From a phage, in the sequence record PZ445407.1: a stretch of DNA of 47,731 nucleotides, one strand, 5' to 3'. The position numbers and the translations under genes were made by a program. Shown here in pieces: positions 5,836-44,718 of this stretch (its first letter is position 1; each line of letters starts with the position of its first letter). The notes under the pieces were generated by a model. The model was given only the letters and a program-made list of their open reading frames with translations, was not told where the DNA came from and did not search any database.

Positions 5836-6203
5836 ACTACAACGAAATAGAATCAATCACTCGTGCTGGCATTAACTTCTTTAGTGATGCCAGCGGCGTT
5901 TATGAAATGAGTACGGGAGCTGGATATGTTGAAATCGTTAACGGCGTTGAGGTTGAGGTTCCTTCGCAAACATTTCAGCTAAAGGGCTTGGTGCGAGAAA
6001 TCAAGACGCGAGATATCGATGGCGAGTTTATCCAGTTTGGCGATAAGCGCGGAATCTTCACGGCCCAGGTGGAAATCAAGCAGGGTTATCAGATTAAGGT
6101 TGATGGTGAGACTTTTGTTGTTGTTGACCCGCGCCCTGTTAAACCAACTGGCACGGTTGTTGGCTACCGTCCAATTCTTCGTAGGGTGGCTACTTATGGC
6201 TAG
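5832..6203 (+). CDS. head-tail joining protein (putative)
   Basis: ATGA overlap with upstream gene. Confidence 0.4.
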   Translation: MNYNEIESITRAGINFFSDASGVYEMSTGAGYVEIVNGVEVEVPSQTFQLKGLVREIKTRDIDGEFIQFGDKRGIFTAQVEIKQGYQIKVDGETFVVVDPRPVKPTGTVVGYRPILRRVATYG

Positions 6204-6633
6204 GAATATTGGAAGCGTGGTTACGTTTGAAAAATCTATTGCTGACTGGATTGACAGAGCGGAGGATGGTTTTGGGATTGTGGTAGCCAATACGGTTATC
6301 AAGACAGCCAGCGCAATTGTTGACCTTTCTCCTGTCGACACTGGTAGGTTTAAGGCTAACTGGCAAATCACCGCAAACTCGCCAGCCCAGCAGTCACTAA
6401 ACGAGTACGACCAGACTGGCGGTCAGACAAAAACATACCTCGCCAGACAGGCGAGAGCGGTTGCCAACTCAAAAGCTACAAGTGTTATTTATATTACCAA
6501 CCGACTTGACTACGCGGCTGATCTTGAGTACGGCGCATCAAACCAGGCTCCATCCGGTGTTTTAGGTGTGGTGCAAGCAAGGTTGGGTAGGTATTTTCAA
6601 GAGGCAGTGGAGGAGGCGCGTCGTGCAATATGA
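6196..6633 (+). CDS. tail completion / neck protein (putative)
   Basis: ATG 6196 overlapping upstream stop; position in module. Confidence 0.4.
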   Translation: MARNIGSVVTFEKSIADWIDRAEDGFGIVVANTVIKTASAIVDLSPVDTGRFKANWQITANSPAQQSLNEYDQTGGQTKTYLARQARAVANSKATSVIYITNRLDYAADLEYGASNQAPSGVLGVVQARLGRYFQEAVEEARRAI

Positions 6634-7723: not shown

Positions 7724-7729
7724 ATTGCA

Positions 7730-20144: not shown

Positions 20145-20200
20145 TTGCATACACGTAACCGTTGTAACTCGATGTATACAATCTCATCCGCGAAAAATGA

Positions 20201-21844: not shown

Positions 21845-22495
21845 ATGCAAATTTCAGAATCATGCAAGTCAATTCTAAACGCACTGCACACTGCTAAATC
21901 GCTATTTGCGAAGGCTGAAAAGTCTAAGCAGAACTCGCACCTAAAAAACAAGTACGCAACCCTTGAAGACGTACTAGCGGCTGTTGAGCCTGGTTTAGAT
22001 GAGTGCGGTCTTGTTATGTTCCAGAGCGTTCTTGATGATGAGCAAACGAATCGCATGAAGGTTGAGACAAAGCTGTTCCATGCTGAGTCAGGGGAGTGGG
22101 TTAGCTTCTTAATGATAGTCCCAATTAGCAAGAATGATGCTCAGGGTTATGGCTCCGCATTAACATACGCTCGACGTTACGGAATCACAGCGGCATTGGG
22201 ACTTAGTCAAGCAGATGATGATGGCAATCTCGCAGCGAAAGGTGTTAAGGATTTCAAACGGGAACTTGAGAAGTGCAACACATTAGATGAGCTTCGTAAT
22301 GTCTGGAAGGATGCCAAGCAGTCACTTGACGCGGCAGGATGGAAGGTCTTTGAGCCTCATATTATTGAGCGCAAGGCAGAGATTGAAGCAAATGCAGCAA
22401 CTGGCTTCAATCCAGCAACACCAAAGAAAGTTGCAGAAAAAAGTAGTATTGATGAAAAGCCTGAAGCAGAATCACAACAAATCGACACATTCTAA
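21845..22495 (+). CDS. erf: Erf-family single-strand annealing protein
   Basis: Motif GSALTYARRYGI characteristic of ERF family; next to exonuclease. Confidence 0.6.
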   Translation: MQISESCKSILNALHTAKSLFAKAEKSKQNSHLKNKYATLEDVLAAVEPGLDECGLVMFQSVLDDEQTNRMKVETKLFHAESGEWVSFLMIVPISKNDAQGYGSALTYARRYGITAALGLSQADDDGNLAAKGVKDFKRELEKCNTLDELRNVWKDAKQSLDAAGWKVFEPHIIERKAEIEANAATGFNPATPKKVAEKSSIDEKPEAESQQIDTF

Positions 22496-22537: not shown

Positions 22538-22957
22538 ATGCACGTAATTACTGGTCAGATTCGCCGCGCTCCATTCACCAAAGAAGGACAGAACGCCAAT
22601 GGTAGCTGGAAAATGTTTGCGGTTGATTTGAGTGAGCGATACAAGGATAAGGATGGTAATAATCATTACACCAACTATCGCGCAGTTTTCTTCGCTAAAG
22701 AGTCAATGTTAGATTGGTATAATGAAGCATTTCAAGAGGGTAAAATTGTTAGCGTTAGCGCTGAAAGCCTGGCTGTTGATGTTCGGGATAAAGATGGCAA
22801 GACTTACGTAACGGTCAATATGAACAACCCTAGACTTGAGTTTAGCCAACGTGGTGATTCAGCACCACAACAGAAGGCGCAAAAGCAACCACAGCAACAG
22901 CAGAATCAACAGCAACCGCAACAGCAACAACAGTTTAATGAAGACATTCCATTCTAA
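22538..22957 (+). CDS. SSB-like single-stranded DNA-binding protein (putative)
   Basis: Gln/Pro-rich linker and C-terminal DIPF tip like bacterial SSB acidic tails. Confidence 0.45.
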   Translation: MHVITGQIRRAPFTKEGQNANGSWKMFAVDLSERYKDKDGNNHYTNYRAVFFAKESMLDWYNEAFQEGKIVSVSAESLAVDVRDKDGKTYVTVNMNNPRLEFSQRGDSAPQQKAQKQPQQQQNQQQPQQQQQFNEDIPF

Positions 22958-25162: not shown

Positions 25163-25185
25163 AAAAAAACCTCCCGTGGGAGGTT
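25163..25185 (-). terminator. minus-strand terminator between primase and tail fiber
   Basis: hairpin cctccc-gtg-ggagg with A-run on plus strand. Confidence 0.5.
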
Positions 25186-26107
25186 AGTCTAATAACTCGC
25201 TTGCTTTGTATATTCGCTTTCTTATGCCTGACTTGAAAAAATTATCATCATTTGGTAATACCACATCAAGATTGCGATCGTCAGCAACAGCAAGTAATTC
25301 AAAATTATGGCGAGTACAAGCGATGCGTAACTTGTGGTTTCTAAGCGCGTAAGCAACCATTTCCATATTATAACTGGAGTGACAAACAAGTACGCAGCGG
25401 TTGCCAGTACCAAGATGAACGTGAACACCATCAATCCAATTGTCGACAAGATAAGCGTACTCATCATCTTTAAGAGAGCCAATAACAGCAACTGACTGGC
25501 GAGTGTAATCTTTTGCAGCATAACTAACATCTCCCTCTTCATTGATAAACATTACATTGCACATTTCCTCTGATATACCGTCACTATAAGCCATAAAGCA
25601 CGGTATTGCGTGTATTAGTTCGCCTGATTTTGCTCTACCAACATCAAATCCAAACTCGCTATAGATTCCCTCGTATGTACTGAGTGGGGTTGATTCTACT
25701 CTTTTGGTCCTTCCCATTATCTCCAGGCATCTTTCGTGGTCAATCTGAGCGCCCATCTTGTATGGTGATGTTCTTGATGCTTGCTTGTTTGCTTTGTTAA
25801 CCACCTCGACGGGGATTAGGTTTAACCACTCACCTAGAGCATCGATACATTCGCTGAACGACTCCCCTCGCAGTTTCTGGACCCAAAGAATTCCATCACC
25901 TGAGCCGCATTGGTTGCAAATAATACCACCATCACCAGGCTCGCTAACTTTGTCGGTCCATCTTGCGCGATCGTTTCCGCCGCAATAAATGCATGGTTGA
26001 TGCTTCTTGGTCTGGAAGAACTTTGGGTCAGCGCCGCAGATATTAATAAGTGCCTTATCCCACAGGCCGCGCATTCTTGGTAGAACCTCTTTCTTATCGT
26101 AGTGCAT
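25184..26107 (-). CDS. DNA primase (zinc-binding, putative)
   Basis: N-terminal Cys4 cluster (CIYCGG...CNQCG); replication region. Confidence 0.55.
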   Translation of the reverse strand: MHYDKKEVLPRMRGLWDKALINICGADPKFFQTKKHQPCIYCGGNDRARWTDKVSEPGDGGIICNQCGSGDGILWVQKLRGESFSECIDALGEWLNLIPVEVVNKANKQASRTSPYKMGAQIDHERCLEIMGRTKRVESTPLSTYEGIYSEFGFDVGRAKSGELIHAIPCFMAYSDGISEEMCNVMFINEEGDVSYAAKDYTRQSVAVIGSLKDDEYAYLVDNWIDGVHVHLGTGNRCVLVCHSSYNMEMVAYALRNHKLRIACTRHNFELLAVADDRNLDVVLPNDDNFFKSGIRKRIYKASELLD

Positions 26108-27015: not shown

Positions 27016-29010
27016 ATGTTGCCTATCGAGAAGCTGGTTGCCAACTTTGATAAAGAGAGAATTAAACAGATTCAGAAAGATTACCAGTTTGGCGAGATAA
27101 CACCTTACGAGTTCCAGTGCGTTACATTTGATGCAATTGGGAAAGCCATTGGCAAGTATGAGGCTCCATTTATCGCAGACCTTTCCGTGTCTGCGGGCAA
27201 GACAATAATTCTGGCTATGATTGGTAAGCGCATGGAGCAATTGGGGTTGCCTTATATGGTGCTCTCTCGCCAGTCAGAGATAATCAGCCAGAACTCAGAA
27301 GAGCTTCGCAACTTCGGCATCCGTAACAGCGTCTATTGCGCTGGTCTTAACGTTAAATCAGTTTACTACCCAACCATAGTTGCTAGTGAGGGTACGGCAG
27401 CCAACGGCTTGTTTAAGGGGCTTGGTGATTATGTTCCGGCAGTTATCGCTATCGATGAATGCCACATGGTCGATCACATGGATATCGTGGAAGCTGAAGA
27501 GAACGAAGAAACATTTGAGCAAATGAGCACAAAGAAAGGTGAGATGGTATTCAAGGATGGCGTTAACACTGGTTTGATTGGTACAGGTCGCGCACAATAC
27601 ACGCTAATAATTACCGAAATGAAACGTCGTTGCCGTGAGAAATACGGGCGGGAGCTTCGCATCTTTGGCCTTACTGGCAGCCCATATCGTAACAACGATC
27701 ATATCGTCGTTAGTAATCCAAACATCCGTGGTTTCTGGCGCAAGACGGTAATACAAGTACCAACCAATTACCTTGTTGATTTGGGGTTCGTTGTGCCAAC
27801 TGTTTACGGTGAGGTTGGCGATTTGGGTTACGATCTTAGTGAGTTTGCGCCAGATGGAAGTGACGGAATTAAGGATTTTAGCAAAAAAGAAATGGATGCG
27901 ATGGAGGAGAAAATCCACCAAAACCAATCAATGACTCAAAAGATTATGCAATTTGCCGCAAAGTTCATGGAGACTCGCAACGCAGCGCTTGTGACATGCT
28001 CTGGTAAGCGTCACTGTGAAGAAGCGGCAGCGGCGCTTCCTGAGGGTGTGACCTGGGCTATAGTAACCGACTCTACAGGTGAGAAAAAGCGCCGTGAGAT
28101 TCTGGCTGACGCTTCAGAAGGTAAGTATAAGTTCATCTTTCAGATTGGTTGCCTCACAACCGGAGTGAACGTCCCACCGTGGGATACATCAATCATTCTG
28201 CGCAAGGTTGGTAGCATCACGTTACTTATTCAGCTTTTGGGTCGAGGCATGCGAATTCTTAAGAAGAAGCATAAAGAAATGGGCATGGTTAAGGACGACC
28301 ACGTGGTTCTAGACTTCGCTGGAACACTTGACGACATGGCAGAGTTGTACTTTGACCCAATCATAGAGGAGGTGCAGGACCAGAAGTTTAAATCATCACG
28401 CAAGGGAAACGATGAGCCGAGGGTTTGCCCGGCCTGCAGCTATGAGAACTCACCATTCGCTCGTCGATGCAATAACGTAATTGACGGGAGGCGTTGTGAA
28501 CATTTTTTTAAATTTCGCTTATGTGAAGATATAGAGGACCACCAGACAAAAGTTACTGTTAAGAAAGGTTGTGGTGAGAAGAATGATATTGCCGCTAAAA
28601 ACTGCCGCTGCTGCGGAGAAATGCTTATTGACCCTAACGCAAAGTTGTCTGGAAAGATGTATCGAAAAGGTGACTGGTTGAGAGTTTACGGATTCAGTAT
28701 TGGGTTAACTAAAAACCAAGCCGGAATCGTTGCTCGCTATGAAATAATGGCTCACAGCGGGGATAGGTTTGTTGCTTACGAAACTTTCTTCCCAGAGAGT
28801 GACCATCGCGTTTGTTCCGTTAAGTGGAAGGCATTTTGCCAGGCGCACATCCAGAACAAAACAGAAGCATTTCGCATCGGAAGACTTCGAAACGCCAAAA
28901 TGATTATGACTAACGCAATTCAATTTCGTGAGCCAATGCGAGTGACTCATAGAAAGAACCAGAAGGGGCAGGACATTATTGCAAACAAATCTTTTACTAT
29001 GGATGATTGA
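27016..29010 (+). CDS. DExH-box helicase
   Basis: Motif II DECH (AIDECHMVDH), motif VI-like QLLGRGMR, C-terminal Cys clusters. Confidence 0.75.
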   Translation: MLPIEKLVANFDKERIKQIQKDYQFGEITPYEFQCVTFDAIGKAIGKYEAPFIADLSVSAGKTIILAMIGKRMEQLGLPYMVLSRQSEIISQNSEELRNFGIRNSVYCAGLNVKSVYYPTIVASEGTAANGLFKGLGDYVPAVIAIDECHMVDHMDIVEAEENEETFEQMSTKKGEMVFKDGVNTGLIGTGRAQYTLIITEMKRRCREKYGRELRIFGLTGSPYRNNDHIVVSNPNIRGFWRKTVIQVPTNYLVDLGFVVPTVYGEVGDLGYDLSEFAPDGSDGIKDFSKKEMDAMEEKIHQNQSMTQKIMQFAAKFMETRNAALVTCSGKRHCEEAAAALPEGVTWAIVTDSTGEKKRREILADASEGKYKFIFQIGCLTTGVNVPPWDTSIILRKVGSITLLIQLLGRGMRILKKKHKEMGMVKDDHVVLDFAGTLDDMAELYFDPIIEEVQDQKFKSSRKGNDEPRVCPACSYENSPFARRCNNVIDGRRCEHFFKFRLCEDIEDHQTKVTVKKGCGEKNDIAAKNCRCCGEMLIDPNAKLSGKMYRKGDWLRVYGFSIGLTKNQAGIVARYEIMAHSGDRFVAYETFFPESDHRVCSVKWKAFCQAHIQNKTEAFRIGRLRNAKMIMTNAIQFREPMRVTHRKNQKGQDIIANKSFTMDD

Positions 29011-31050: not shown

Positions 31051-32181
31051 ATGGCAACTGCAAAAATTACCAACGAAGAACTGCGCGAAGAACTGGCTAA
31101 TGGCATGACCAACAAAGCTATCGCAGAGAAGTACGGAATGAATATTCGCAATGTCGAATTGCGTCGTAGTAAATTAGCTAAGAGTGGAGAGTTGCACGGA
31201 AACCCAGGTATCAAGAAGTTAGTTCCTGACGGTTATTTGGTCAAAGGTACGTCAACCATGATTGATGCGGATGGCAACGAGAAGATTCGCTGGGTTAAGA
31301 CCTCAATTGATAATGAGCGACTTGAGGTTTTAATGGAGCAAGCTCGAGAAGCATTCTGCTCTGATTTGCCAAAAGCAGATGCGGTAATCCACTCAGGTAA
31401 TGAGGTCAACTCTGAGTTAATGACTCTTTACCCTATTTTCGATATCCATATTGGCATGATGGCGCATCGCCATGAGTCCGGCGAAAATTATGACACGAAC
31501 ACCGCTGAGAAATTAATGGGATCATATTTTGACCATGCAATTTCCGTATCACCAGCCTCAGAGAAAGCCGTGATTTTAGTTGGTGGTGATTTCCTTCACT
31601 CCGATGGGTTGGAATCGGTAACTCCAGCAAGCGGACACTGCCTTGATCAAGATAGTCGATATGCCAAGTTAGTTTATGTTGCTATTCGCTCGATTCGTTG
31701 CGCCGTAGAGAAGATGCTTAAGAAGCATAAGAATGTCGAGATTCAGATTATAGAGGGCAATCACGACCAGAGTGGTATGATTTGGCTCCGTGCGGCAATG
31801 GCTGCATTTTATGAAAACGAGAATCGCGTGTTTGTTGATACCAGTCCGGCAATCATGCACAAGACGCGATTTGGCTCAACATTACTTGGTTACACTCACG
31901 GTCACACCATGAAGAAAGCCGAGGGTAGACTTGCAGCAATGGCTACCGACTACCGCAAAGACTTTGGTGAATGTGAGTTTGTTTACTGCCACTCCGGCCA
32001 TTTCCATCACGCAACTGTTACAGAGTGCACTCTTGGGATTGACGAGGTTCACCCAGCGCTGGCTAGTAAGGATGCGTATGCAGCTCGAGGAGGGTGGCGC
32101 TCATATCGCCAAGCTGCCGCAATCATCTATCACAAGGAGTTCGGTGAGGTTGGTAGGCATATTTATCGCCCAGGCATGTAA
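31051..32181 (+). CDS. calcineurin-like metallophosphoesterase with N-terminal HTH-like domain
   Basis: Motifs DIHIG..H, GGDFLH, GNHD, GHxH; N-terminal TNKAIAEKYGMNIRNVELRRSKL. Confidence 0.55.
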   Translation: MATAKITNEELREELANGMTNKAIAEKYGMNIRNVELRRSKLAKSGELHGNPGIKKLVPDGYLVKGTSTMIDADGNEKIRWVKTSIDNERLEVLMEQAREAFCSDLPKADAVIHSGNEVNSELMTLYPIFDIHIGMMAHRHESGENYDTNTAEKLMGSYFDHAISVSPASEKAVILVGGDFLHSDGLESVTPASGHCLDQDSRYAKLVYVAIRSIRCAVEKMLKKHKNVEIQIIEGNHDQSGMIWLRAAMAAFYENENRVFVDTSPAIMHKTRFGSTLLGYTHGHTMKKAEGRLAAMATDYRKDFGECEFVYCHSGHFHHATVTECTLGIDEVHPALASKDAYAARGGWRSYRQAAAIIYHKEFGEVGRHIYRPGM

Positions 32182-33275: not shown

Positions 33276-33640
33276 TAATGTGCGTAGCTTTGTCTGGATG
33301 TTCAGCAACTGATGCACTGACCGGATTGATTGGCAGCAAGCCGGAGGTTACAGCTCAGGCCGGGGCAGAGAATAACAAGGTTGGAGTTGGGTTAACGAAT
33401 AAGGTCGACTCTAGTAACTCCAGTGATGCCACTGTTAAGGATTCCAGCGTAGGCTCTCTGGATAGCTCGAGTGGGAAAAAGACTGCTGACAATTCGATTA
33501 AGGCCTCAACAATTACCGCCGAAAAGATTGAAATTACCAATAACGAATCATCCGCGCTTCCGTGGGTTGGAACAGGAGCAATGGGTTTGTTGGTTTTAAT
33601 TCTCATGGCATTAATCTTAAGACGTAAAAAAGCCTCCTAA
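33251..33640 (+). CDS. unimolecular spanin (u-spanin-like)
   Basis: N-terminal lipobox LSGC plus C-terminal TMD followed by RRKK; overlaps endolysin 3' end. Confidence 0.6.
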   Translation: MFKWIAALVMCVALSGCSATDALTGLIGSKPEVTAQAGAENNKVGVGLTNKVDSSNSSDATVKDSSVGSLDSSSGKKTADNSIKASTITAEKIEITNNESSALPWVGTGAMGLLVLILMALILRRKKAS

Positions 33641-33662
33641 TGGAGGCTATATTTTTATCCAA
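33641..33662. terminator. bidirectional terminator after spanin
   Basis: agcctcc-taat-ggaggct flanked by A-run and T-run. Confidence 0.55.
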
Positions 33663-33990
33663 ATAACTCGTCGTCCGTCATTGTTCCTATATTCATCATC
33701 TCTTTTATGTACTTGCTTTGATACCCGTTAAGCGCCTCGAAGTTAAACTCAAATGGTCTTTTCAAGCTACCCTTGCTAACAAACTCACCACACTTACCAT
33801 CAATGTATCCAGCAGTTAGCATTTTTGCACAAAATTCCTTTGATGCGGCACTGCAAAACTCTCTGTGCGACAAACCAGCCGCTTTGCTGAATCTCTCAGA
33901 GTCCTTGTGTTTGTAGATGAATCGCGCCAAATGCTGGCGCGTAAAGTAGGAATAAGATTCACAGAATCGGTACACGTCAAGGATGAACAT
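33655..33990 (-). CDS. hypothetical protein
   Basis: Last gene of minus-strand operon. Confidence 0.4.
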   Translation of the reverse strand: MFILDVYRFCESYSYFTRQHLARFIYKHKDSERFSKAAGLSHREFCSAASKEFCAKMLTAGYIDGKCGEFVSKGSLKRPFEFNFEALNGYQSKYIKEMMNIGTMTDDELFG

Positions 33991-33992
33991 AA

Positions 33993-34079
33993 TTAACTCC
34001 TGAGTACTGCCAAAACAAATAGAAGCATCGAAATTGTTACAACAACACCAAGTATTATCAATAGTATCGATTCAATCAT
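33993..34079 (-). CDS. hydrophobic micro-ORF (28 aa, MIESILLIILGVVVTISMLLFVLAVLRS)
   Basis: Hand-translated; RBS gggtga; tightly packed between two minus-strand genes. Confidence 0.25.
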   Translation of the reverse strand: MIESILLIILGVVVTISMLLFVLAVLRS

Positions 34080-34082
34080 AAG

Positions 34083-35666
34083 TCACCCCAGCAATCGTGG
34101 ATTAATGTAAACTTTATCACCAATCAGGCACGTGTAGTTTTTCTCATCAAGCATTGGCAGCAGGTGATCTTTAATCTTAGTCATCACTCCAGCCTGAGCT
34201 TCGAATGGTTTGACCTTACGAGCAGCTTCATATAGAGAACGAACGCCTACTACGCCTTTCCCGTTCCTGCCTTGTTTAATCAGAATATCAATCAGCTTAT
34301 TCATCTCGGCATTGTCTCCAGCGTGACCAGCGGCGTTGGCAGATGACAGATAAGTCTTGCTAAGTTCCTGGAACATAATTACAGCCTCCTGCATTGTGTC
34401 CAACTCAATCTCCCTGGACTTCTGTGGACTCCCGCCGTTAGGGTTGAACCAGTTGCGAATAGTGTGAAGAACCGCAGCGATTCTGATAGCCTGCTTATCG
34501 AACTTGCCTAACGCACCGCGCAACATTGTGTGTGAATACTTCCCGCCGTCCGCGAGGTGAGGCTCCATTTCCTGACGCGCTCGGTTGAGATATTTCATTG
34601 CTGAGTTGCTCACTGTCAACTTAACATCTTGCTCATTCATGATTTCGTGAACCAGTCGGAAGTAATCAGCCTTTAGTCCACCATCAATTGGCTCGTATGT
34701 TGATTCACCATTTTCATCAACGAATACACGCTCGCCCAGGAATGACTTTTCACGTACAAGCAGGAAACGTTCCGACACACCAATACCACGCGCACCAGCA
34801 TTCATGATCGCGTTTATTGTTTCATCCTGCGCAATTACTGAGATGCAACCCATAGCAAAGAAACTCATGTTGTTCTCTGCATTCGCGCGAGCGATAGATA
34901 CGTGCCCACCATCCCATGCTTTAAGAACAAGTTCGCTGTTCGTTTTCTTAGAGCCATCACCATAGGTCATGCCAAGCAGTGAGTTAACACTCGTTGCCTC
35001 ATCCGAGATAACCGCGAAGTTACCCTGGCGGTTGTTTATTCGTGCCAGGCCTTCAGGTGTGGTGTCTGATACCGGGAATACGATATCGCACAACTTCTCC
35101 AGTTTTTCCTCTAGCTCCTCCTTTTCCTCAAATAGGGAGGCCATCTCTGAAGGAGATTTTTCCTGCTTCATCTCTTTGGATAATGCGGATAGTTTTGCCA
35201 TAATCTTTTTGCGCTCACGCTTGCGAACTTCATTCAGTCGCTCGGTCTCAGCAATCATTGGAGCAATCGAAAGTGAGTTGATGGCTGATTTACCAGTTGA
35301 TGGCGGCTGACTGGTCACGACGTAAAGCGAAGTCGGTTGCTGAGTTCCATGATACTCGACAGTAAAGCGGCCCAGCATCGCAGCAGAAATACACCCCAGG
35401 AAGTGCATATAGGCTGAAGACTCTGGGAACTGAACGGAGCGGGCAATGTTGGCAGAAAGTTTACCAACAACATCAATATCATTACCGAGTGAGATTACGG
35501 GGTACTTGTCATTAGCGGAATCAATCTCTACGGGCGCCTTCCAGAACGATTGAGACTGTCGATAGCCATTGGCATTAATAGCGACTCGCAGGGGTGGGAG
35601 GTTGTCTGCGGCAGCAATTGCCATAACCTGTTCAACAGATAGCTTATCTTCGTTGAAATCAAACAT
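34083..35666 (-). CDS. P-loop NTPase (putative replication-associated ATPase)
   Basis: Walker A-like QPPSTGKS and Walker B-like AVISDEAT; N- and C-terminal regions shared with 38508..39047. Confidence 0.55.
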   Translation of the reverse strand: MFDFNEDKLSVEQVMAIAAADNLPPLRVAINANGYRQSQSFWKAPVEIDSANDKYPVISLGNDIDVVGKLSANIARSVQFPESSAYMHFLGCISAAMLGRFTVEYHGTQQPTSLYVVTSQPPSTGKSAINSLSIAPMIAETERLNEVRKRERKKIMAKLSALSKEMKQEKSPSEMASLFEEKEELEEKLEKLCDIVFPVSDTTPEGLARINNRQGNFAVISDEATSVNSLLGMTYGDGSKKTNSELVLKAWDGGHVSIARANAENNMSFFAMGCISVIAQDETINAIMNAGARGIGVSERFLLVREKSFLGERVFVDENGESTYEPIDGGLKADYFRLVHEIMNEQDVKLTVSNSAMKYLNRARQEMEPHLADGGKYSHTMLRGALGKFDKQAIRIAAVLHTIRNWFNPNGGSPQKSREIELDTMQEAVIMFQELSKTYLSSANAAGHAGDNAEMNKLIDILIKQGRNGKGVVGVRSLYEAARKVKPFEAQAGVMTKIKDHLLPMLDEKNYTCLIGDKVYINPRLLG

Positions 35667-35740
35667 TACTTCTCTCCGTGTTGTTTCTGAGCGGCCATTA
35701 TATCAACGGCCGCCTATAATTCATTATCAATTTGTGCTAT

Positions 35741-36094
35741 TTACAGGTATTGCGCTTCAAATCTGTAGTCACCGCACACTGTAACAAAGCCAACCTCTTC
35801 GTCACGGTATAGCTGCCAGGCATTGCCTTCTCTATCGTAAACGTATCCAGCAAACTGCCCAAGACCTGCATGAATGGCAACTTGATACCTCTTCCCTTCG
35901 GTAAAGTACTTGCGAATAGATGAGCGATGGTTAACCTTTGTGCAGTAAATAGTTTTGGTCTTGATATACTTACCGCGCCCTTCAATGTTAATCCATTTGC
36001 CATCTTTCTTGATTTGCTCTACACCATCTTTAACGCGAGCTTTGTATAATACGTTTTCGTTGCTAATCCAGTTCTTTGTCAGTGTAGTAGTCAT
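35741..36094 (-). CDS. hypothetical protein
   Basis: ATG 36094 overlaps stop of upstream small ORF. Confidence 0.4.
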   Translation of the reverse strand: MTTTLTKNWISNENVLYKARVKDGVEQIKKDGKWINIEGRGKYIKTKTIYCTKVNHRSSIRKYFTEGKRYQVAIHAGLGQFAGYVYDREGNAWQLYRDEEVGFVTVCGDYRFEAQYL

Positions 36095-36255
36095 TTTGTT
36101 ACTCTCTTCGTTGTCCACATGAATTTGTTAGGTACTGATTTGCGCACGATTCGCACAGCAATCTTGTCAAACTTCTGAACTAAACCGTAAATCTTCCCAT
36201 CAAGTGAGGAGCGGTAAACAGCCTCTTCCATTGCGTCGTAAAAGTTGTCGAACAT
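36091..36255 (-). CDS. hypothetical small protein (~54 aa)
   Basis: Hand-translated; coupled to neighbours. Confidence 0.25.
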   Translation of the reverse strand: MFDNFYDAMEEAVYRSSLDGKIYGLVQKFDKIAVRIVRKSVPNKFMWTTKRVTK

Positions 36256-36258
36256 TTT

Positions 36259-36450
36259 CTATCTCTTTGTTGCGTAAGTAATATTGCCCGCTGGAGTTGA
36301 GCATGTGATATCAAGTGGTTTGCTGTTGTGCTTAATTGTCTTGCTCTGCTCTCTAGCTGTCAAAACTGAATCAATAATCCTTTGGATGATAACCTTATCT
36401 CGTTTGCTTGACAGCTTCCATCGTTTCGTTAAAGTTTTTATGTCTTGCAT
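36259..36450 (-). CDS. hypothetical protein
   Basis: ORF track; behind minus-strand palindrome promoter. Confidence 0.35.
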   Translation of the reverse strand: MQDIKTLTKRWKLSSKRDKVIIQRIIDSVLTAREQSKTIKHNSKPLDITCSTPAGNITYATKR

Positions 36451-36476
36451 TTCACATCTCCCGTTTCAATGAGATG

Positions 36477-36519
36477 AATATACATGAAAAGCCCCGAAGG
36501 GATTTAGCGATTCGTGCTA
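36477..36519 (-). promoter_or_regulatory. palindrome-type promoter on minus strand with terminator-like hairpin in spacer
   Basis: Reverse complement: TAGCA cgaat CGCTA + 22 bp (contains cccttcgggg hairpin) + TATATT. Confidence 0.45.
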
Positions 36520-36665
36520 TTGCGTGCTTTTTCTATCGCCCTTAGCATAATCTCATGACTATCAAGCAAGTCTTCTCGGAACCAATCCCCGCATGGCCAG
36601 CCCTTTCCGCTGTAGGCGCTGATGACCTCCAGATCGAAATAATTTATCTCAGATGGTAATAGCAT
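36504..36665 (-). CDS. hypothetical small protein (~53 aa)
   Basis: Hand-translated; stop embedded in promoter palindrome. Confidence 0.25.
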   Translation of the reverse strand: MLLPSEINYFDLEVISAYSGKGWPCGDWFREDLLDSHEIMLRAIEKARNSTNR

Positions 36666-36668
36666 TAC

Positions 36669-36860
36669 TCAGGCCTCCATAATGTATTCAAACTCTGATG
36701 TAAACAGTGGAAGCTCCCTTCCGGAAGGAGTCTTGATACTAACCCCGCCGGACTCATACTGTCGCATAACCTCGTAAGAACCTCCAATCTCAACTCCGTA
36801 GAATTCTCTCTCGTATTTGCCGTGTTTCGTTTGAAAGCTGATTAATTTAATTTTCATCAT
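36669..36860 (-). CDS. hypothetical protein
   Basis: ORF track. Confidence 0.35.
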   Translation of the reverse strand: MMKIKLISFQTKHGKYEREFYGVEIGGSYEVMRQYESGGVSIKTPSGRELPLFTSEFEYIMEA

Positions 36861-37096
36861 TTCACCTCATTAAAGGTTGCAATACCAGGGATAAACATTC
36901 CAACCTTCCAGCCCGCAATGGCAATCCATCCAGAGTCGTGCTTGTGCGGTCGCTCAGCGCCATTAATCACCCACTCGTTCGGGATTGTCTTGCCGTTAAT
37001 GATTAGCGGCTCAGCGTCGTATGCAGAGCCTTTGACGAATGGTGTTAATACCTTCTTGTCTGTACTTGTAATAACGTTAGTGCAGCGAATTTTCAT
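36857..37096 (-). CDS. hypothetical protein (start MKIRCTNV)
   Basis: RBS gagga before ATG 37096. Confidence 0.35.
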   Translation of the reverse strand: MKIRCTNVITSTDKKVLTPFVKGSAYDAEPLIINGKTIPNEWVINGAERPHKHDSGWIAIAGWKVGMFIPGIATFNEVK

Positions 37097-37106
37097 ATCC
37101 AAATCC

Positions 37107-37286
37107 TCAAATAAATGGTAGGCATTCGTCACAGCCAAGTCCATCACAGCACAGGAATTCATCTTCTGACTGGAATTGCTTAGCCAAATCTATATCCAAC
37201 TTTCCTCGCACCACAAGTTCCGTGTAATCCTCGTTAAGCCCAATCAGTGCGCATTCTTGGCGTAACTCATCTTTATCAATCTTCAT
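37107..37286 (-). CDS. hypothetical protein (60 aa; Cys-rich C-terminus CCDGLGCDEC)
   Basis: ATG 37286 behind minus-strand promoter/leader of the conserved type. Confidence 0.35.
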   Translation of the reverse strand: MKIDKDELRQECALIGLNEDYTELVVRGKLDIDLAKQFQSEDEFLCCDGLGCDECLPFI

Positions 37287-37313
37287 ATCCACCCCCTCGT
37301 TGTTGATGAGTTG

Positions 37314-37357
37314 ACTATACCCTCGCCAGACCATAACGTCATTAACAAAAAGTGCTA
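37314..37357 (-). promoter_or_regulatory. palindrome-type promoter on minus strand for the 33655..37286 accessory operon
   Basis: Reverse complement: TAGCA ctttt TGTTA + ~22 bp + TATAGT + leader ...CATCAACAACGAGGGGG. Confidence 0.5.
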
Positions 37358-37373
37358 TTCGTCAGATTTATGG

Positions 37374-37458
37374 ATTGTTGCAGATATTGCAATGATTCAC
37401 ATGATTATTGCACATATAGCAATATTGCTTCAGATGCAATGATGTTTTTGATTGTTGC
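37374..37458. promoter_or_regulatory. cluster of ATTGCA/TGCAAT repeats flanked by direct repeat GATTGTTGC (operator-like)
   Basis: At least six TTGC(A) units within 85 bp of a non-coding region. Confidence 0.3.
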
Positions 37459-37602
37459 GAAAAGTGAAATGAAGGGGTGAGTGAGCGAATGATAGATGGA
37501 TGGACTACCATACAAGTTGATTTTGATTCTTCTTGAGCAACTTTGCGCATACGCGTTATAAAGGTTATGCCATGTAGATGAAATCTCACTCCGCAGGAAT
37601 CG

Positions 37603-37700
37603 TGTACGCCTATCACGCAGGATTACGCAATGGTTACGTAATAATATCTATATATATCAACCTTTTAGTGTTATTATTATTATTATTATTATATACGTGT
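37603..37700. repeat. iteron/AT-rich repeat element copy B (same core, (TTA)7)
   Basis: Direct repeat of copy A; second short conserved block TTACATTGAGCTATA at 37848..37869 vs 20429..20449. Confidence 0.6.
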
Positions 37701-37753
37701 ATATAGTGTAGATAGTGGATATTGGATATTGCGATAGTTTTCTATGATTTTTT

Positions 37754-37786
37754 CCTACACTTGTAGGAATGTGACTACACTGTAGG
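37754..37786. promoter_or_regulatory. two tandem palindromic sites CCTACA-(N1-2)-TGTAGG-AAT (operator-like)
   Basis: cctacacttgtaggaat and ctacactgtaggaat read directly. Confidence 0.35.
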
Positions 37787-37917
37787 AATAAATAGGCATA
37801 TATGGGCCACCCCTCCATAAAAACTTATCTACAATCTGTACACGGCTTTACATTGAGCTATATCTGGGGTTGGTAGCTGAAAAGCGTAAATAAATTGAAT
37901 TCAACCACAAATAACGC

Positions 37918-37946
37918 TTGATAACATGTAACCTCGATGATATTAT
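37918..37946 (+). promoter_or_regulatory. sigma70-like promoter (-35 TTGATA, 17 bp, -10 TATTAT) for 37987..38508
   Basis: Hexamers read directly. Confidence 0.45.
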
Positions 37947-37986
37947 GCACCCATATTAACGAAGGCAACAATCAGGAGTAATATCT

Positions 37987-38508
37987 ATGTCGAATCGAAT
38001 TCAGCCAGTAAGCCTTGGTGATGTTATCCGCTACATGGCCAAGCAGGCACTTAAGACTGACAACCGAACTTTTCATGTCCCAATCCATCTTATAGCTCGC
38101 CAGGTGTACGGACTAACGTCTGATGATATGGGCCGAATCAGCACTGAAGATCTCGAGACTGGTGGCAAATACAGCTTGGCAAAGTTGAAAGCGTCATATG
38201 TCTCTAACACAGTTGCAAGGATGCCGGAGATTCAGGAGGCGAACGTTCGGGCCAAGCTATCAATCAAGGACGGAGACTTCGGGGATGATGTTGATGTTCG
38301 ATGCGCATACATCACCTTGGTAGATGGGGCAATTCAGAAAGGAAAGAGAGTGAAGGCCAACAACCAGGTTGCAGAGAAGGCGGTGAACGACTTTAAGGAT
38401 AGAATCCTCAAGCTAATGCCATCCGTGACTGAGTTTGAAGGAGGCGAGATCACTGGAGCCATTAAGGCAATTAAGATGTACCAGGAAATGATTAAGGAGA
38501 CAAAATAA
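37987..38508 (+). CDS. hypothetical protein
   Basis: Behind canonical sigma70-like promoter. Confidence 0.45.
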   Translation: MSNRIQPVSLGDVIRYMAKQALKTDNRTFHVPIHLIARQVYGLTSDDMGRISTEDLETGGKYSLAKLKASYVSNTVARMPEIQEANVRAKLSIKDGDFGDDVDVRCAYITLVDGAIQKGKRVKANNQVAEKAVNDFKDRILKLMPSVTEFEGGEITGAIKAIKMYQEMIKETK

Positions 38509-39047
38509 TGGGGATGTTTGATTTTACCGAAGAGAAGCTGACAGATGAGCAGATTATGCAGATTGCTGCGCGGGATGGACTTCCTCCGCTACGAGTTGCA
38601 ATCAATGCCAATGGATATCGCCAGTCTCAATCATTCTGGTGTAGTGTTGAGGAGTTGCTCTGCGCAAAGCTCGACAGCAAGTCGGGCGTAGTTGTGCTAA
38701 AAATTCACGACCAGAGCAGGAACGGTAAAGGGGTTGTAGGAATTAGATCAACATATGAAGCGCTGAGAAAGGTCAAGCCATTTGCCGGACTCAACGGAGT
38801 CATGCATGACCTGAAAAATAACATCCTGCCATCGCTACAGGACGTAGGAATCATCTGCCTCATTGGAGATAAAATTTACGTGCATCCATACATCATTGGC
38901 ATGCATGCGATAGAAGTTGAAGAGTGGTGCGACCCATGTCCTGCTGTTGAGCAAGATACTAGACTACCATACCACTTGCGTTATAGTGAGGAAGAGGTGG
39001 AGATGGCGATGGACTTGTATCGTAGATGGAATGCTGTTGGGAAATGA
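38508..39047 (+). CDS. internally deleted paralog of the 34083..35666 ATPase (N- and C-terminal modules only)
   Basis: Shares LPPLRVAINANGYRQSQSFW and C-terminal RNGKGVVG.R..YEA.RKVKPF...CLIGDK.Y with the 527-aa protein; lacks the P-loop core. Confidence 0.5.
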   Translation: MGMFDFTEEKLTDEQIMQIAARDGLPPLRVAINANGYRQSQSFWCSVEELLCAKLDSKSGVVVLKIHDQSRNGKGVVGIRSTYEALRKVKPFAGLNGVMHDLKNNILPSLQDVGIICLIGDKIYVHPYIIGMHAIEVEEWCDPCPAVEQDTRLPYHLRYSEEEVEMAMDLYRRWNAVGK

Positions 39048-44640: not shown

Positions 44641-44718
44641 GCTCTGCTAGCTCAATTGGATAGCAGCAACGACCTTCTAAGTCGTAGGTTACTGGTTCGA
44701 ATCCAGTGCGGAGCGCCA
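44641..44718 (+). tRNA. tRNA-Arg (anticodon UCU), CCA encoded
   Basis: Acceptor stem GCTCTGC/GCGGAGC, anticodon stem ACGAC/GTCGT with loop CTTCTAA, canonical T-arm GGTTCGAATCC, 3' GCCA. Confidence 0.8.

Follow-up and report, generated by a model that had tools for sequence, protein, structure and literature searches.

The window (PZ445407.1, the whole 47,731-nt stretch of phage DNA analysed) is a Rtp-like genome of the Braunvirinae, family Drexlerviridae. Its minus strand carries ten ORFs, o1 to o10, between positions 33655 and 37357, each preceded by a Shine-Dalgarno-like sequence. Three starts were reset to positions that match the JeanPiccard and Rtp annotations: that of o1 from 37334, an ATG inside the promoter whose ORF has a PHROG match only over aa 17-75, to 37286; that of o2 from the longest-ORF start at 37162 to 37096; and that of o7 from a GTG at 36118 to the ATG at 36094. 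Stop-to-start distances from o1 through o10 are 10, -4 (ATGA), 3, 53, 3, -4 (ATGA), 74, 3, and 2 nt, so the tight coupling proposed in an earlier sequence-only reading holds for the ten ORFs, all of which are present, except across the 53- and 74-nt gaps, which contain promoter elements. Comparison with five relatives gave pN/pS values of 0.05-0.29 for nine ORFs; o9, compared with a single close copy, had a value of ~1.0. Where several hydrophobic micro-ORFs had been expected, we found one, o9 (GRAVY 2.39).

JeanPiccard, ZL19, and 2725-N35 share 86-88% nucleotide identity with the window and have identical gene order. A homologous arm, flanked by a divergent intergenic region and a convergent spanin gene, is present in ACG-M12, PaulSarasin, NPat, SH2, T1, Rtp, and Bas11. 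In T1 and Rtp, it likewise lies between a divergent AT-rich intergenic region and a convergent holin-endolysin-spanin cassette with identical strand logic, conserves the trio gp7, gp9 (the helicase), and gp10, and carries upstream direct-repeat (DR) elements, one of them ~73 nt before the helicase start. T1 differs in its small promoter-proximal genes and in the HNH endonuclease gene that separates gp7 from gp9, the additional gene rtp68 is present in Rtp, and the window has the o3, o5, and o9 cassettes. The corresponding trio of o7, o8, and o10 was detected in unchanged order in every Drexlerviridae locus examined, across all subfamilies checked, whereas the remaining ORFs were not; it accounts for ~60% of the block. 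We consider it probable that the block is the homologue of genes 1-10 of T1 (ST1-ST10) and genes 66-75 of Rtp (rtp66-rtp75), and thus the leftward, presumably early, arm of a phage from the T1 family. This is one joint judgment on the arm, its transcription scheme, its swappable genes, and its replication cassette as set out below. As a conserved arm in which a few swappable small genes precede a helicase and two conserved, putative partners, the block is therefore mostly ordinary and is already annotated in relatives.

Four of the small promoter-proximal genes are subfamily-specific, detectable in Braunvirinae only: o1 (37107..37286; 59 aa, acidic; phrog_9053; Rtp gp74; pN/pS 0.12), which has a C-terminal CCDGLGCxECLPF motif, o2 (36857..37096; 79 aa; phrog_4448; Rtp gp73; pN/pS 0.13), o4 (36504..36665; 53 aa; phrog_4548; Rtp gp72; pN/pS 0.05), and o6 (36091..36255; 54 aa; phrog_5407; Rtp gp70). 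Three ORFs are sporadic and occur in some close relatives only. The first, o3 (36669..36860; 63 aa; phrog_14327), overlaps the o2 stop at an ATGA and is a cassette with paralogues in relatives. The second, o5 (36259..36450; 63 aa, basic), matched no family and occupies a swap slot; among the six Braunvirinae compared, only the window and JeanPiccard have it. In other Drexlerviridae subfamilies, Dcm methyltransferase genes are found in the promoter-proximal position. The third, o9 (33993..34079), is a 28-aa single-pass hydrophobic micro-ORF within an 89-nt insert that is present in three of the six Braunvirinae; in ZL19, the same insert encodes a diverged hydrophobic ORF of 27 aa. Presence and absence among relatives vary at the level of cassettes, and homology breakpoints fall at DR edges. 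The promoter-proximal ORFs thus behave like accessory early genes. We propose that o1-o6 are small early genes with fast turnover whose cassettes would be exchanged at gene boundaries and conserved DR edges. Most likely, they can be dispensed with and serve host takeover or anti-defence, which would put them in one class with Bas11 Gp54.

The "family-type promoter" of the sequence-only reading is the T1-like 21-nt intergenic direct repeat aaATAGCACnnnTTGnTAAAA published for TLS, T1, Rtp, and Rogue1 (German et al. 2024). Consensus and orientation to transcription are the same; the repeats lie 70-74 nt before start codons here versus ~76 nt as published. With up to three mismatches allowed, the window has 12 occurrences of the 18-mer ATAGCACGAATTGCTAAA where 0.09 would be expected, and this type of DR was present in all Drexlerviridae loci examined. 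About 18 repeat copies align over ~65 nt, the -10 hexamer included: each DR is 20-21 nt from a TATAGT-like hexamer, which is followed by a conserved leader and a ribosome-binding site, and is oriented toward the downstream gene. A strong hairpin encloses or abuts the -10 in 7 of 18 copies. The fixed distance to the hexamer, the conserved leader, and these hairpins add to the published description of the repeat.

Three such elements lie on the minus strand of the block. P1 (37314..37358) has the DR ATAGCACTTTTTGTTAAT at 37341-37358 and a -10 TATAGT at 37314-37319, 72 nt before the o1 start; homology to relatives ends at 37338, 3 nt beyond the DR edge. P2 (36477..36520) has the DR ATAGCACGAATCGCTAAA at 36503-36520, a weak CCC-TTCG-GGG hairpin, and a -10 TATATT at 36477-36482, with a homology breakpoint at the DR edge at 36503. 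P3 (35690..35740), dedicated to the helicase gene and 74 nt before its start, has its DR at 35723-35740 and a -10 TATAAT at 35697-35702 that is enclosed by an 11-bp hairpin (35690-35714, -16.5 kcal/mol); hairpins with different stems occur at this position in Rtp-group phages, ACG-M12, PaulSarasin, and T1/SH2. The two promoters previously placed at 37314..37357 and 36477..36519 are both real members of the repeat family; the third, at 35697-35740, had been missed, and with three promoter-type elements the block is not the one self-contained operon that was envisaged. The bidirectional terminator that the block and the convergent spanin gene have in common was confirmed as an intrinsic terminator at 33631..33648. 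Its hairpin, flanked by T-runs on either side, has folding energies of -13.3 (z -3.1) and -15.3 kcal/mol (z -5.9) for the two strands. In the scheme that we favor, host RNA polymerase would read P1 through o1-o4, P2 through o5-o6 with o7 ending that unit, and P3 through the helicase gene, and would stop at the terminator that also serves the lysis cassette.

The DR spans about -51 to -33 without a canonical -35 box, and it may act as a UP-like element, a factor-binding site, or in some other way. It is unlikely that the block-internal DRs are instead operators, "stoperators", enhancers, or RNA-processing sites on a single transcript from P1 or further upstream. This would fit with the lack of a DR-provided -35 box 17 nt from the -10 and with a simple sigma-70 scan, which gave P1 9/12 and listed neither P2 nor P3; the P3 hairpin could be an RNA element of read-through transcripts, and the TLS authors named the stoperator and enhancer hypotheses and left the function open. 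It is at odds with the invariable 20-21 nt between DR and hexamer and with a leader and ribosome-binding site that always face the downstream gene. It also conflicts with observations on Bas11, in which the 75 nt before gene 54 make up a DR-type element. This region is treated as the native promoter; a fragment that carries the native promoter drives expression in uninfected E. coli, and escape mutations directly upstream of the gene lower expression (PMC11578894).

The gene served by P3, o8 (34083..35666, minus strand), encodes a 527-aa DUF3987 (SF6/MCM-related AAA+) protein, a predicted helicase that corresponds to T1 gp9 and Rtp gp67. Its match to PF13148 (DUF3987) scored 145 bits (cut-off 27; E = 3.7e-42), in agreement with the P-loop ATPase first noted in the block. 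The GK of Walker A (SQPPSTGKS, aa 119-127) and the DE of Walker B (ISDEA, D222 E223) are invariant among homologues down to 35% identity. Of 924 matching phage records, 908 contain the full-length protein, and these span Braunvirinae, Tempevirinae, Tunavirinae, and Webervirus. The pN/pS of o8 is 0.07; no relative of solved structure was found by sequence. DUF3987 proteins have been described as SF6, MCM-related replicative helicases with a C-terminal wHTH domain (PMC4889955), and 5'-3' DNA helicase activity has been shown for the PriCT-DUF3987 protein AgaPH (PMC11724360). By analogy with this literature, o8 would have a C-terminal winged helix and be hexameric. It resembles AgaPH, the phage N4 dns protein, and the Mycobacterium phage Corndog helicase in its strong Pfam match, its invariant Walker A/B motifs, and, in related phages, its genomic association with a DnaG-type primase. 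It differs in having no fused PriCT or AEP primase domain, in its distance of ~8 kb from the primase gene, and in being flanked by the family-specific small o7 and o10. In the more distant phages KpV2811 and AsC4_1, the helicase gene lies inside a replication cluster of primase, SNF2 helicase, RecE, Erf, and SSB genes.

The primase of the window is a Zn-ribbon, DnaG-type protein (25184-26107), and its gene adjoins a divergent gene for a SNF2-type helicase (27016-29010). The window proteins that were examined included no DNA polymerase, and T1/TLS reportedly lack one too (German et al. 2024). Because a primase is encoded but no DNA polymerase, we infer that o8 opens or unwinds the phage DNA, works with the DnaG-type primase, and recruits the host replisome. 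The distal part of the arm would then be a conserved replication-initiation cassette around an MCM-like hexameric helicase with its own promoter.

If the SNF2-type helicase and the primase did the unwinding, o8 could instead bind the origin as an initiator or serve as an ATPase in restart, recombination, or counter-defence. The adjacency of those two genes and the 8 kb between primase and o8 genes would suit this division of labor, as would the TLS authors' assignment of replication to the primase and the SNF2/DEAD-type helicase that T1-like phages encode beside it, which they regard as the replication helicase. So would a 179-aa "mini-helicase" paralogue in the opposite arm, which retains only N-terminal and C-terminal parts of o8 and hints at a separate function for these end domains. 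However, SNF2/DEAD helicases encoded beside a VRR-NUC nuclease gene are usually fork-remodelling or repair enzymes, and the Rtp annotation has such a nuclease gene beside its SNF2/DEAD helicase gene. DUF3987 proteins are moreover MCM-related and oligomeric, the single assayed member unwinds forked DNA 5'-3' (PMC11724360, PMC4889955), and the Walker motifs are invariant. A role of o8 away from the fork is thus improbable, and we prefer that of a replicative helicase.

Upstream of the helicase gene lies o7 (35741..36094, minus strand; 117 aa; T1 gp7/Rtp gp69 family; phrog_2684), whose relatives are few (26 representative clusters); it is predicted to be all-beta, and its C-terminal ~70 aa are conserved family-wide. 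Downstream lies o10 (33655..33990, minus strand; 111 aa; T1 gp10/Rtp gp66 family; phrog_2794; pN/pS 0.07), for which relatives are likewise few (75 matches, none below 50% identity). It is predicted to fold as a winged helix over aa 1-80 and to end in a disordered tail with an invariant DDELF motif. Neither gene was found beside the helicase gene in outgroup phages, so that DUF3987 helicases do not universally have the two proteins as cofactors. We propose that the beta-barrel o7 and the winged-helix o10 with its acidic tail might be family-specific loading or adaptor subunits of o8.

The modelled o7 includes a rare beta-barrel like that of Bas11 Gp54 (PDB 9axb), the trigger of CapRelSJ46, and gene 54 sits behind its DR-type promoter in the arm homologous to the block. 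Gp54 is non-essential and sensed by CapRelSJ46, and deletions of gene 54 and neighboring genes are viable (PMC11578894). At the sequence level, the two proteins are nevertheless not significantly similar (hhalign probability 0.6%, E 0.096), and the window contains no sequence homologue of Gp54. Furthermore, o7 has twice the length of Gp54 and is conserved throughout the family, whereas Gp54 is dispensable and patchy (213-215 phage records). The barrel in the o7 model, the winged helix and DDELF tail of o10, and the mini-helicase paralogue of the opposite arm are new details.

It is very unlikely that the whole ten-gene block, ATPase included, is a single self-contained operon of accessory or anti-defence cargo. 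Such an operon would be consistent with the lack of a Pfam or NCBIfam function for nine of the ten products, with the small ORFs and lysis-cassette neighborhood typical for cargo, with the variable content of o3, o5, and o9, and with the deletable immune trigger in the homologous Bas11 arm. Yet all subfamilies checked keep o7, o8, and o10 in unchanged order, purifying selection on o8 and o10 is strong, and three promoters divide the block. Moreover, the family of o8 is one of replicative helicases, and outgroup phages have its gene among those for replication. The accessory module of unknown function described from the sequence is apt for the proximal ORFs, which are subfamily-specific or sporadic, and not for the o7/o8/o10 core; nor does every gene of the block have a conserved replication homologue.

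Three breakpoints suggest a role of the DR in recombination. The PeSL motifs of T4-like phages are similarly promoter-containing repeats, often with a stem-loop, between small early genes and at the boundaries of exchanged cassettes. Their sequence is unrelated, and phage family and architecture differ, so that the resemblance is one of working and not of membership.

The ten minus-strand ORFs at 33655-37357, numbered o1 to o10 from the promoter-proximal end, lie in a known, conserved region of T1-like genomes, in which a mosaic of swappable small early genes stands ahead of a core replication cassette. The window has the gene map of a T1/Rtp-like siphophage. Structural genes occupy the plus strand up to ~23 kb, and a block with tail-fibre, primase and Cro-like regulator genes is on the minus strand. 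A SNF2-type helicase gene is followed by a holin-endolysin-spanin cassette ending at 33640 and then by the ten-ORF block, after which a divergent, AT-rich intergenic region of 652 bp leads into a long plus-strand series of small genes. A megablast search with 33600-37500 matched 168 phage records. The closest were Escherichia phages 2725-N35, ZL19, JeanPiccard (Bas02) and the vB_EcoS-12xxx series, at 86-88% identity and 85-89% query coverage; those for which the taxonomy was retrieved belong to Drexlerviridae, subfamily Braunvirinae. The block corresponds in gene order to the leftward early arm of T1-like phages (T1 genes 1-10, Rtp 66-75), with the divergent intergenic region followed by small ORFs, gp7, a DUF3987 helicase and gp10, convergent with the spanin gene. 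This order was identical in T1, Rtp, ACG-M12, PaulSarasin, NPat, SH2 and Bas11, and in other subfamilies the small ORFs of the arm include a Dcm methyltransferase. T1 genes 1 and 2 are, we presume, DNA-negative loci. What we add to this region is small, namely a putative third promoter, a predicted Gp54-like fold in the gp7 family, a DDELF tail in the gp10 family, a mini-helicase and repeat edges as possible cassette boundaries. These points are worth a note but fall short of making the locus a discovery and will hardly surprise a specialist; all are directly testable, and their main value is a clearer version of the existing annotation.

All ten ORFs were present, but three of the longest-ORF starts were too early. 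We placed them at 37286 (o1), 37096 (o2) and 36094 (o7), as indicated by Shine-Dalgarno sequences, by the range of the PHROG alignment and by how relatives are annotated. The tight coupling described from the sequence was borne out except at the two gaps with promoter elements, the distances between consecutive genes being 10, -4, 3, 53, 3, -4, 74, 3 and 2 nt. Nine of the ORFs are under purifying selection (pN/pS 0.05-0.29 against five Braunvirinae). When the ten products were compared with eleven loci by tblastn, o7, o8 and o10 (T1 gp7, gp9 and gp10) were found in Braunvirinae, Guelphvirus ACG-M12, Tempevirinae (PaulSarasin), Webervirus (NPat) and Tunavirinae (T1, SH2); o1, o2, o4 and o6 were confined to Braunvirinae, and o3, o5 and o9 to some Braunvirinae. 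Presence or absence therefore varies among relatives for o3, o5 and o9 and at the level of subfamilies for o1, o2, o4 and o6, but not for o7, o8 and o10. The sequence-only reading had taken the whole block for a self-contained accessory module. That description suits the promoter-proximal third and fails for the remainder, since o7, o8 and o10 recur in all subfamilies surveyed; the remainder is ordinary phage replication machinery, in which the helicase is already annotated in several relatives. Dispensability is known for the homologous Bas11 region only.

The nine non-helicase ORFs had no match in Pfam or NCBIfam. Homology to defence or anti-defence proteins was likewise absent, the small ORFs having no functional match in those two databases and only "unknown function" matches in PHROG. 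An Rfam scan of 33400-38200 gave nothing above threshold (top match ES003, E 0.7). A distant relationship of o1 to T1 gp6 and bas09_0054, with which it has a C-terminal C..C.PF motif in common, is unproven, the match being only 9 residues long (E 0.016). The several hydrophobic micro-ORFs reported earlier came down to one, o9, which encodes 28 aa and lies inside an 89-nt insert separating the helicase gene from o10. Both 2725-N35 and ZL19 have the insert; JeanPiccard, Rtp and ACG-M12 lack it. In ZL19 it has diverged strongly, yet it still codes for a 27-aa hydrophobic peptide, which argues that o9 is a real micro-gene.

The P-loop ATPase noted in the block is o8, a 527-aa protein that matches PF13148 (DUF3987) over aa 81-430 with 145.2 bits against a cut-off of 27 (E = 3.7e-42) and phrog_2373, "DNA helicase", with E = 2e-259. 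Walker A residues G125 and K126 (SQPPSTGKS) and Walker B residues D222 and E223 do not vary among the 9 sequences compared, down to 35% identity, and the last 63 aa form a conserved unit. Of the 924 phage records that the protein matched, 908 align over 80% or more of its length. Sequence searches of the PDB with o8, alone and as a profile, found no relative of solved structure. We noted that 21 records named as Campylobacter jejuni phages (MG065688.1, MG065685.1 and others) carry an Escherichia T1-like helicase region at 71-88% identity, a label that looks like contamination or mislabelling. DUF3987 proteins have been described as SF6 helicases, distant relatives of MCM that carry a C-terminal wHTH domain and in most cases are associated with a primase, and have been argued to be replicative (Kazlauskas et al., PMC4889955). 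ATP-dependent 5'-3' unwinding by an oligomer has been demonstrated for AgaPH alone, a PriCT-DUF3987 protein that also binds its primase-polymerase (PMC11724360). In KpV2811 and the Aeromonas phage AsC4_1, the o8 homologue (35-38% identity) sits within a cluster of primase, SNF2-type helicase, RecE and Erf genes, which in KpV2811 also includes an SSB gene. A primase gene adjoins or lies near the homologue in both phages, and the Zn-ribbon primase gene of the window is ~8 kb from o8. T1-like phages encode no DNA polymerase (PMC11447400). From these sequence relationships, the most economical reading is that o8 is the replicative or initiator helicase of the phage. A T1-like gene at the end of the lysis cassette, often annotated as "hypothetical" or "putative helicase", would then be a conserved MCM-like helicase with its own promoter and two small conserved partners, which makes it the best candidate for the replication-initiation module of T1-like phages, a classic family whose replication is poorly understood.

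We then considered how the block might be transcribed. A bidirectional terminator shared with the spanin gene had been proposed, and the hairpin at 33631-33648 is indeed stable on both strands and has T-runs on each side. The two proposed promoters at 37314-37358 (P1, upstream of o1) and 36477-36520 (P2, upstream of o5) do belong to one repeat family, to which a third, overlooked copy at 35697-35740 (P3), directly upstream of the helicase gene, has to be added. The 18-mer ATAGCACGAATTGCTAAA occurs 12 times in the window with up to 3 mismatches (0.09 expected), and looser matching gave 18 copies alignable over ~65 nt. These lie at 7729, 12121, 13382, 21772, 26927, 29428, 30269, 39067, 40198, 41568, 42186 and 43334 on the plus strand and at 20145, 26190, 26464, 35740, 36520 and 37358 on the minus strand, in early, replication and structural regions alike, and all are oriented towards the gene downstream. 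In each layout the repeat is followed after 20-21 nt by a TATAGT-like -10 hexamer, a leader with the consensus CCCATCGAAACGA and a ribosome-binding site.

The repeat is the 21-nt intergenic direct repeat aaATAGCACnnnTTGnTAAAA published for phage TLS and found also in T1, Rtp and Rogue1, whose function the TLS authors left open (PMC11447400). The three copies in the block (37358, 36520 and 35740) have this consensus, are intergenic and follow the direction of transcription; they precede the start codons of o1, o5 and o8 by 72, 70 and 74 nt, compared with ~76 nt for the published repeat. We found the repeat in every Drexlerviridae locus examined and did not find it in the examined parts of two outgroup phages. 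It spans about -51 to -33 and supplies no canonical -35 box. Its palindromic form (TAGCA-N5-TGCTA, centred near -42) could have pointed to a class II activator site for a phage factor. The stretch of 75 nt that precedes Bas11 gene 54, however, is exactly an element of this type, and the CapRel study describes expression of gene 54 under its native promoter from a plasmid in uninfected E. coli, as well as escape mutations just upstream of the gene that reduced its expression (PMC11578894). Activity in uninfected cells leaves the activator site unsupported, and together with the effect of the upstream mutations it is why the repeat elements are best read as promoters for host RNA polymerase. With three promoter-type elements, the block would comprise three nested transcription units and not the single operon that had been proposed.

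Strong hairpins (z below -3.5) occur at seven of the 18 copies, with the -10 hexamer either inside the hairpin or next to it. Within the block, P3 alone has one, and it encloses the -10 hexamer. P3 keeps its place in all subfamilies, and the stem is built from different sequences in the Rtp group, ACG-M12, PaulSarasin and T1/SH2. A weak hairpin at P2 was unconvincing as an internal terminator (z -0.14). Repeat edges may also mark sites of gene exchange. Where homology between the window and its close relatives breaks off, it does so at gene boundaries, and three of the breakpoints (37338, 36503 and 35741) are 0-3 nt from a repeat edge, whereas a rough estimate predicts ~0.13 such coincidences among ~12 breakpoints. 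This resembles the PeSL promoter/terminator motifs that bound exchanged cassettes in T4-like phages, although the repeat is unrelated to PeSLs in sequence and strong hairpins are limited to the seven copies. The fixed register with the -10 hexamer and the match to cassette-exchange boundaries are thus two additions to the open question of the 21-nt repeat.

Gp54 of Bas11 (phage JohannLBurckhardt) is a 66-aa non-essential protein of unknown function. It folds into a rare six-stranded barrel and directly activates the defence protein CapRelSJ46 (PMC11578894). Its gene, bas11_0054, comes second in the homologous arm, ahead of a Dcm gene, the homologue of gp7, the helicase and the homologue of gp10. 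The predicted model of o7 (117 aa) has the six-stranded small beta-barrel of Gp54 (PDB 9axb). Comparison of the two family profiles by hhalign aligned the expected regions but was not significant (probability 0.6%, E 0.096), and phmmer and hmmsearch detected no Gp54 sequence homologue in the window. We therefore claim for o7 only a predicted fold in common with Gp54 and no membership of its family. Even the close Gp54 homologues of Bas5, Bas8, Bas10 and SECphi27 do not activate CapRelSJ46 (PMC11578894). The o7 profile weakly detected bas09_0059, a 68-aa stand-alone protein encoded beside the PaulSarasin Gp54 homologue (E 0.0085 with a few thousand ORFs searched), and a Foldseek search of viral models picked up this fold in several stand-alone phage proteins, each 62-75 aa long. 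HMMs of o7 and o10 found no counterpart beside the helicase in KpV2811 or AsC4_1. The studied immune trigger is thereby placed in the same arm, where a conserved neighbour of the helicase is predicted to have its rare fold. In Tempevirinae, a small ORF directly follows the Gp54 homologue (1856-2283 in the PaulSarasin locus, 6001-6395 in the Bas11 locus). In SH2 and phi2457T, the Gp54 homologue is found ~1 kb into the record, away from the helicase arm and apparently within the opposite, rightward one, so the gene seems to move from arm to arm.

Acidic/aromatic tails were seen in three proteins. The SSB (22538-22957, plus strand) ends in NEDIPF and the Erf-like annealing protein (21845-22495, plus strand) in QIDTF, and o10 (111 aa; 33655-33990, minus strand) has a DDELF motif one residue before its C-terminus. 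These tails may reflect a common docking mode. A bolder proposal, which we think improbable, is that o7 as a beta-barrel and o10 as a winged helix with a DDELF tail are dedicated subunits of a novel type of replisome-initiation complex centred on the MCM-like DUF3987 helicase. The DDELF tail would mimic SSB-type C-terminal tips, such as the NEDIPF end of the phage's own SSB, and would connect the helicase with the interaction network of host SSB or Pol III, as a polymerase-less phage would need. The stand-alone Gp54-like and gp7C-like barrels in the arm would have split off from the helicase cofactor by duplication and been put to new use as effectors aimed at the host. If true, this would explain why a CapRel-type defence sensor watches the Gp54 fold.

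A paralogue of o8 is encoded in the rightward arm. This mini-helicase (179 aa; 38508-39047, plus strand; phrog_7327) lacks the entire ATPase core. Its aa 3-53 correspond to helicase aa 1-51 (71% identity) and its aa 69-131 to helicase aa 465-527 (57%), so that the conserved C-terminal unit of o8 is retained. Against relatives without the o9 insert, its tblastn match apparently continues beyond the stop codon of the helicase gene and takes in the first ~12 codons of o10. This points to an origin by duplication of a helicase-o10 segment and loss of its interior. An orthologue with 48% identity occurs in JeanPiccard, a remnant is all that 2725-N35 has, and T1 lacks the gene.

The divergent intergenic region between the arms (37335-37986; 652 bp, 38% GC) contains three copies of GATTGTTGC, and two of TGCAATGA-N-ATTGC at a distance of 47 nt. 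It also has a run of (ATA)n at ~37672-37690 and, at 37371-37399, a hairpin of 13 bp. Its T1 counterpart is the start of the deposited linear record and of its 2.8-kb terminal repeat, and we regard the intergenic region of the window as a candidate origin and/or packaging-start region. Elsewhere, the 376-aa product of 31051-32181 (plus strand) is called "DNA repair exonuclease" in T1, Rtp and ACG-M12 and "sigma-70 region 4 domain-containing protein" in Klebsiella phage NPat; the latter label looks unreliable, as the only match we obtained, to a metallophosphatase family, was weak and stayed under the Pfam cut-off. The rightward arm opens with a gene (37987-38508, plus strand) for a DUF7174 protein (PF23796, E = 5e-51), and a tRNA-Arg gene (anticodon TCT) lies at 44641-44718 on the plus strand, amid the small rightward early genes.
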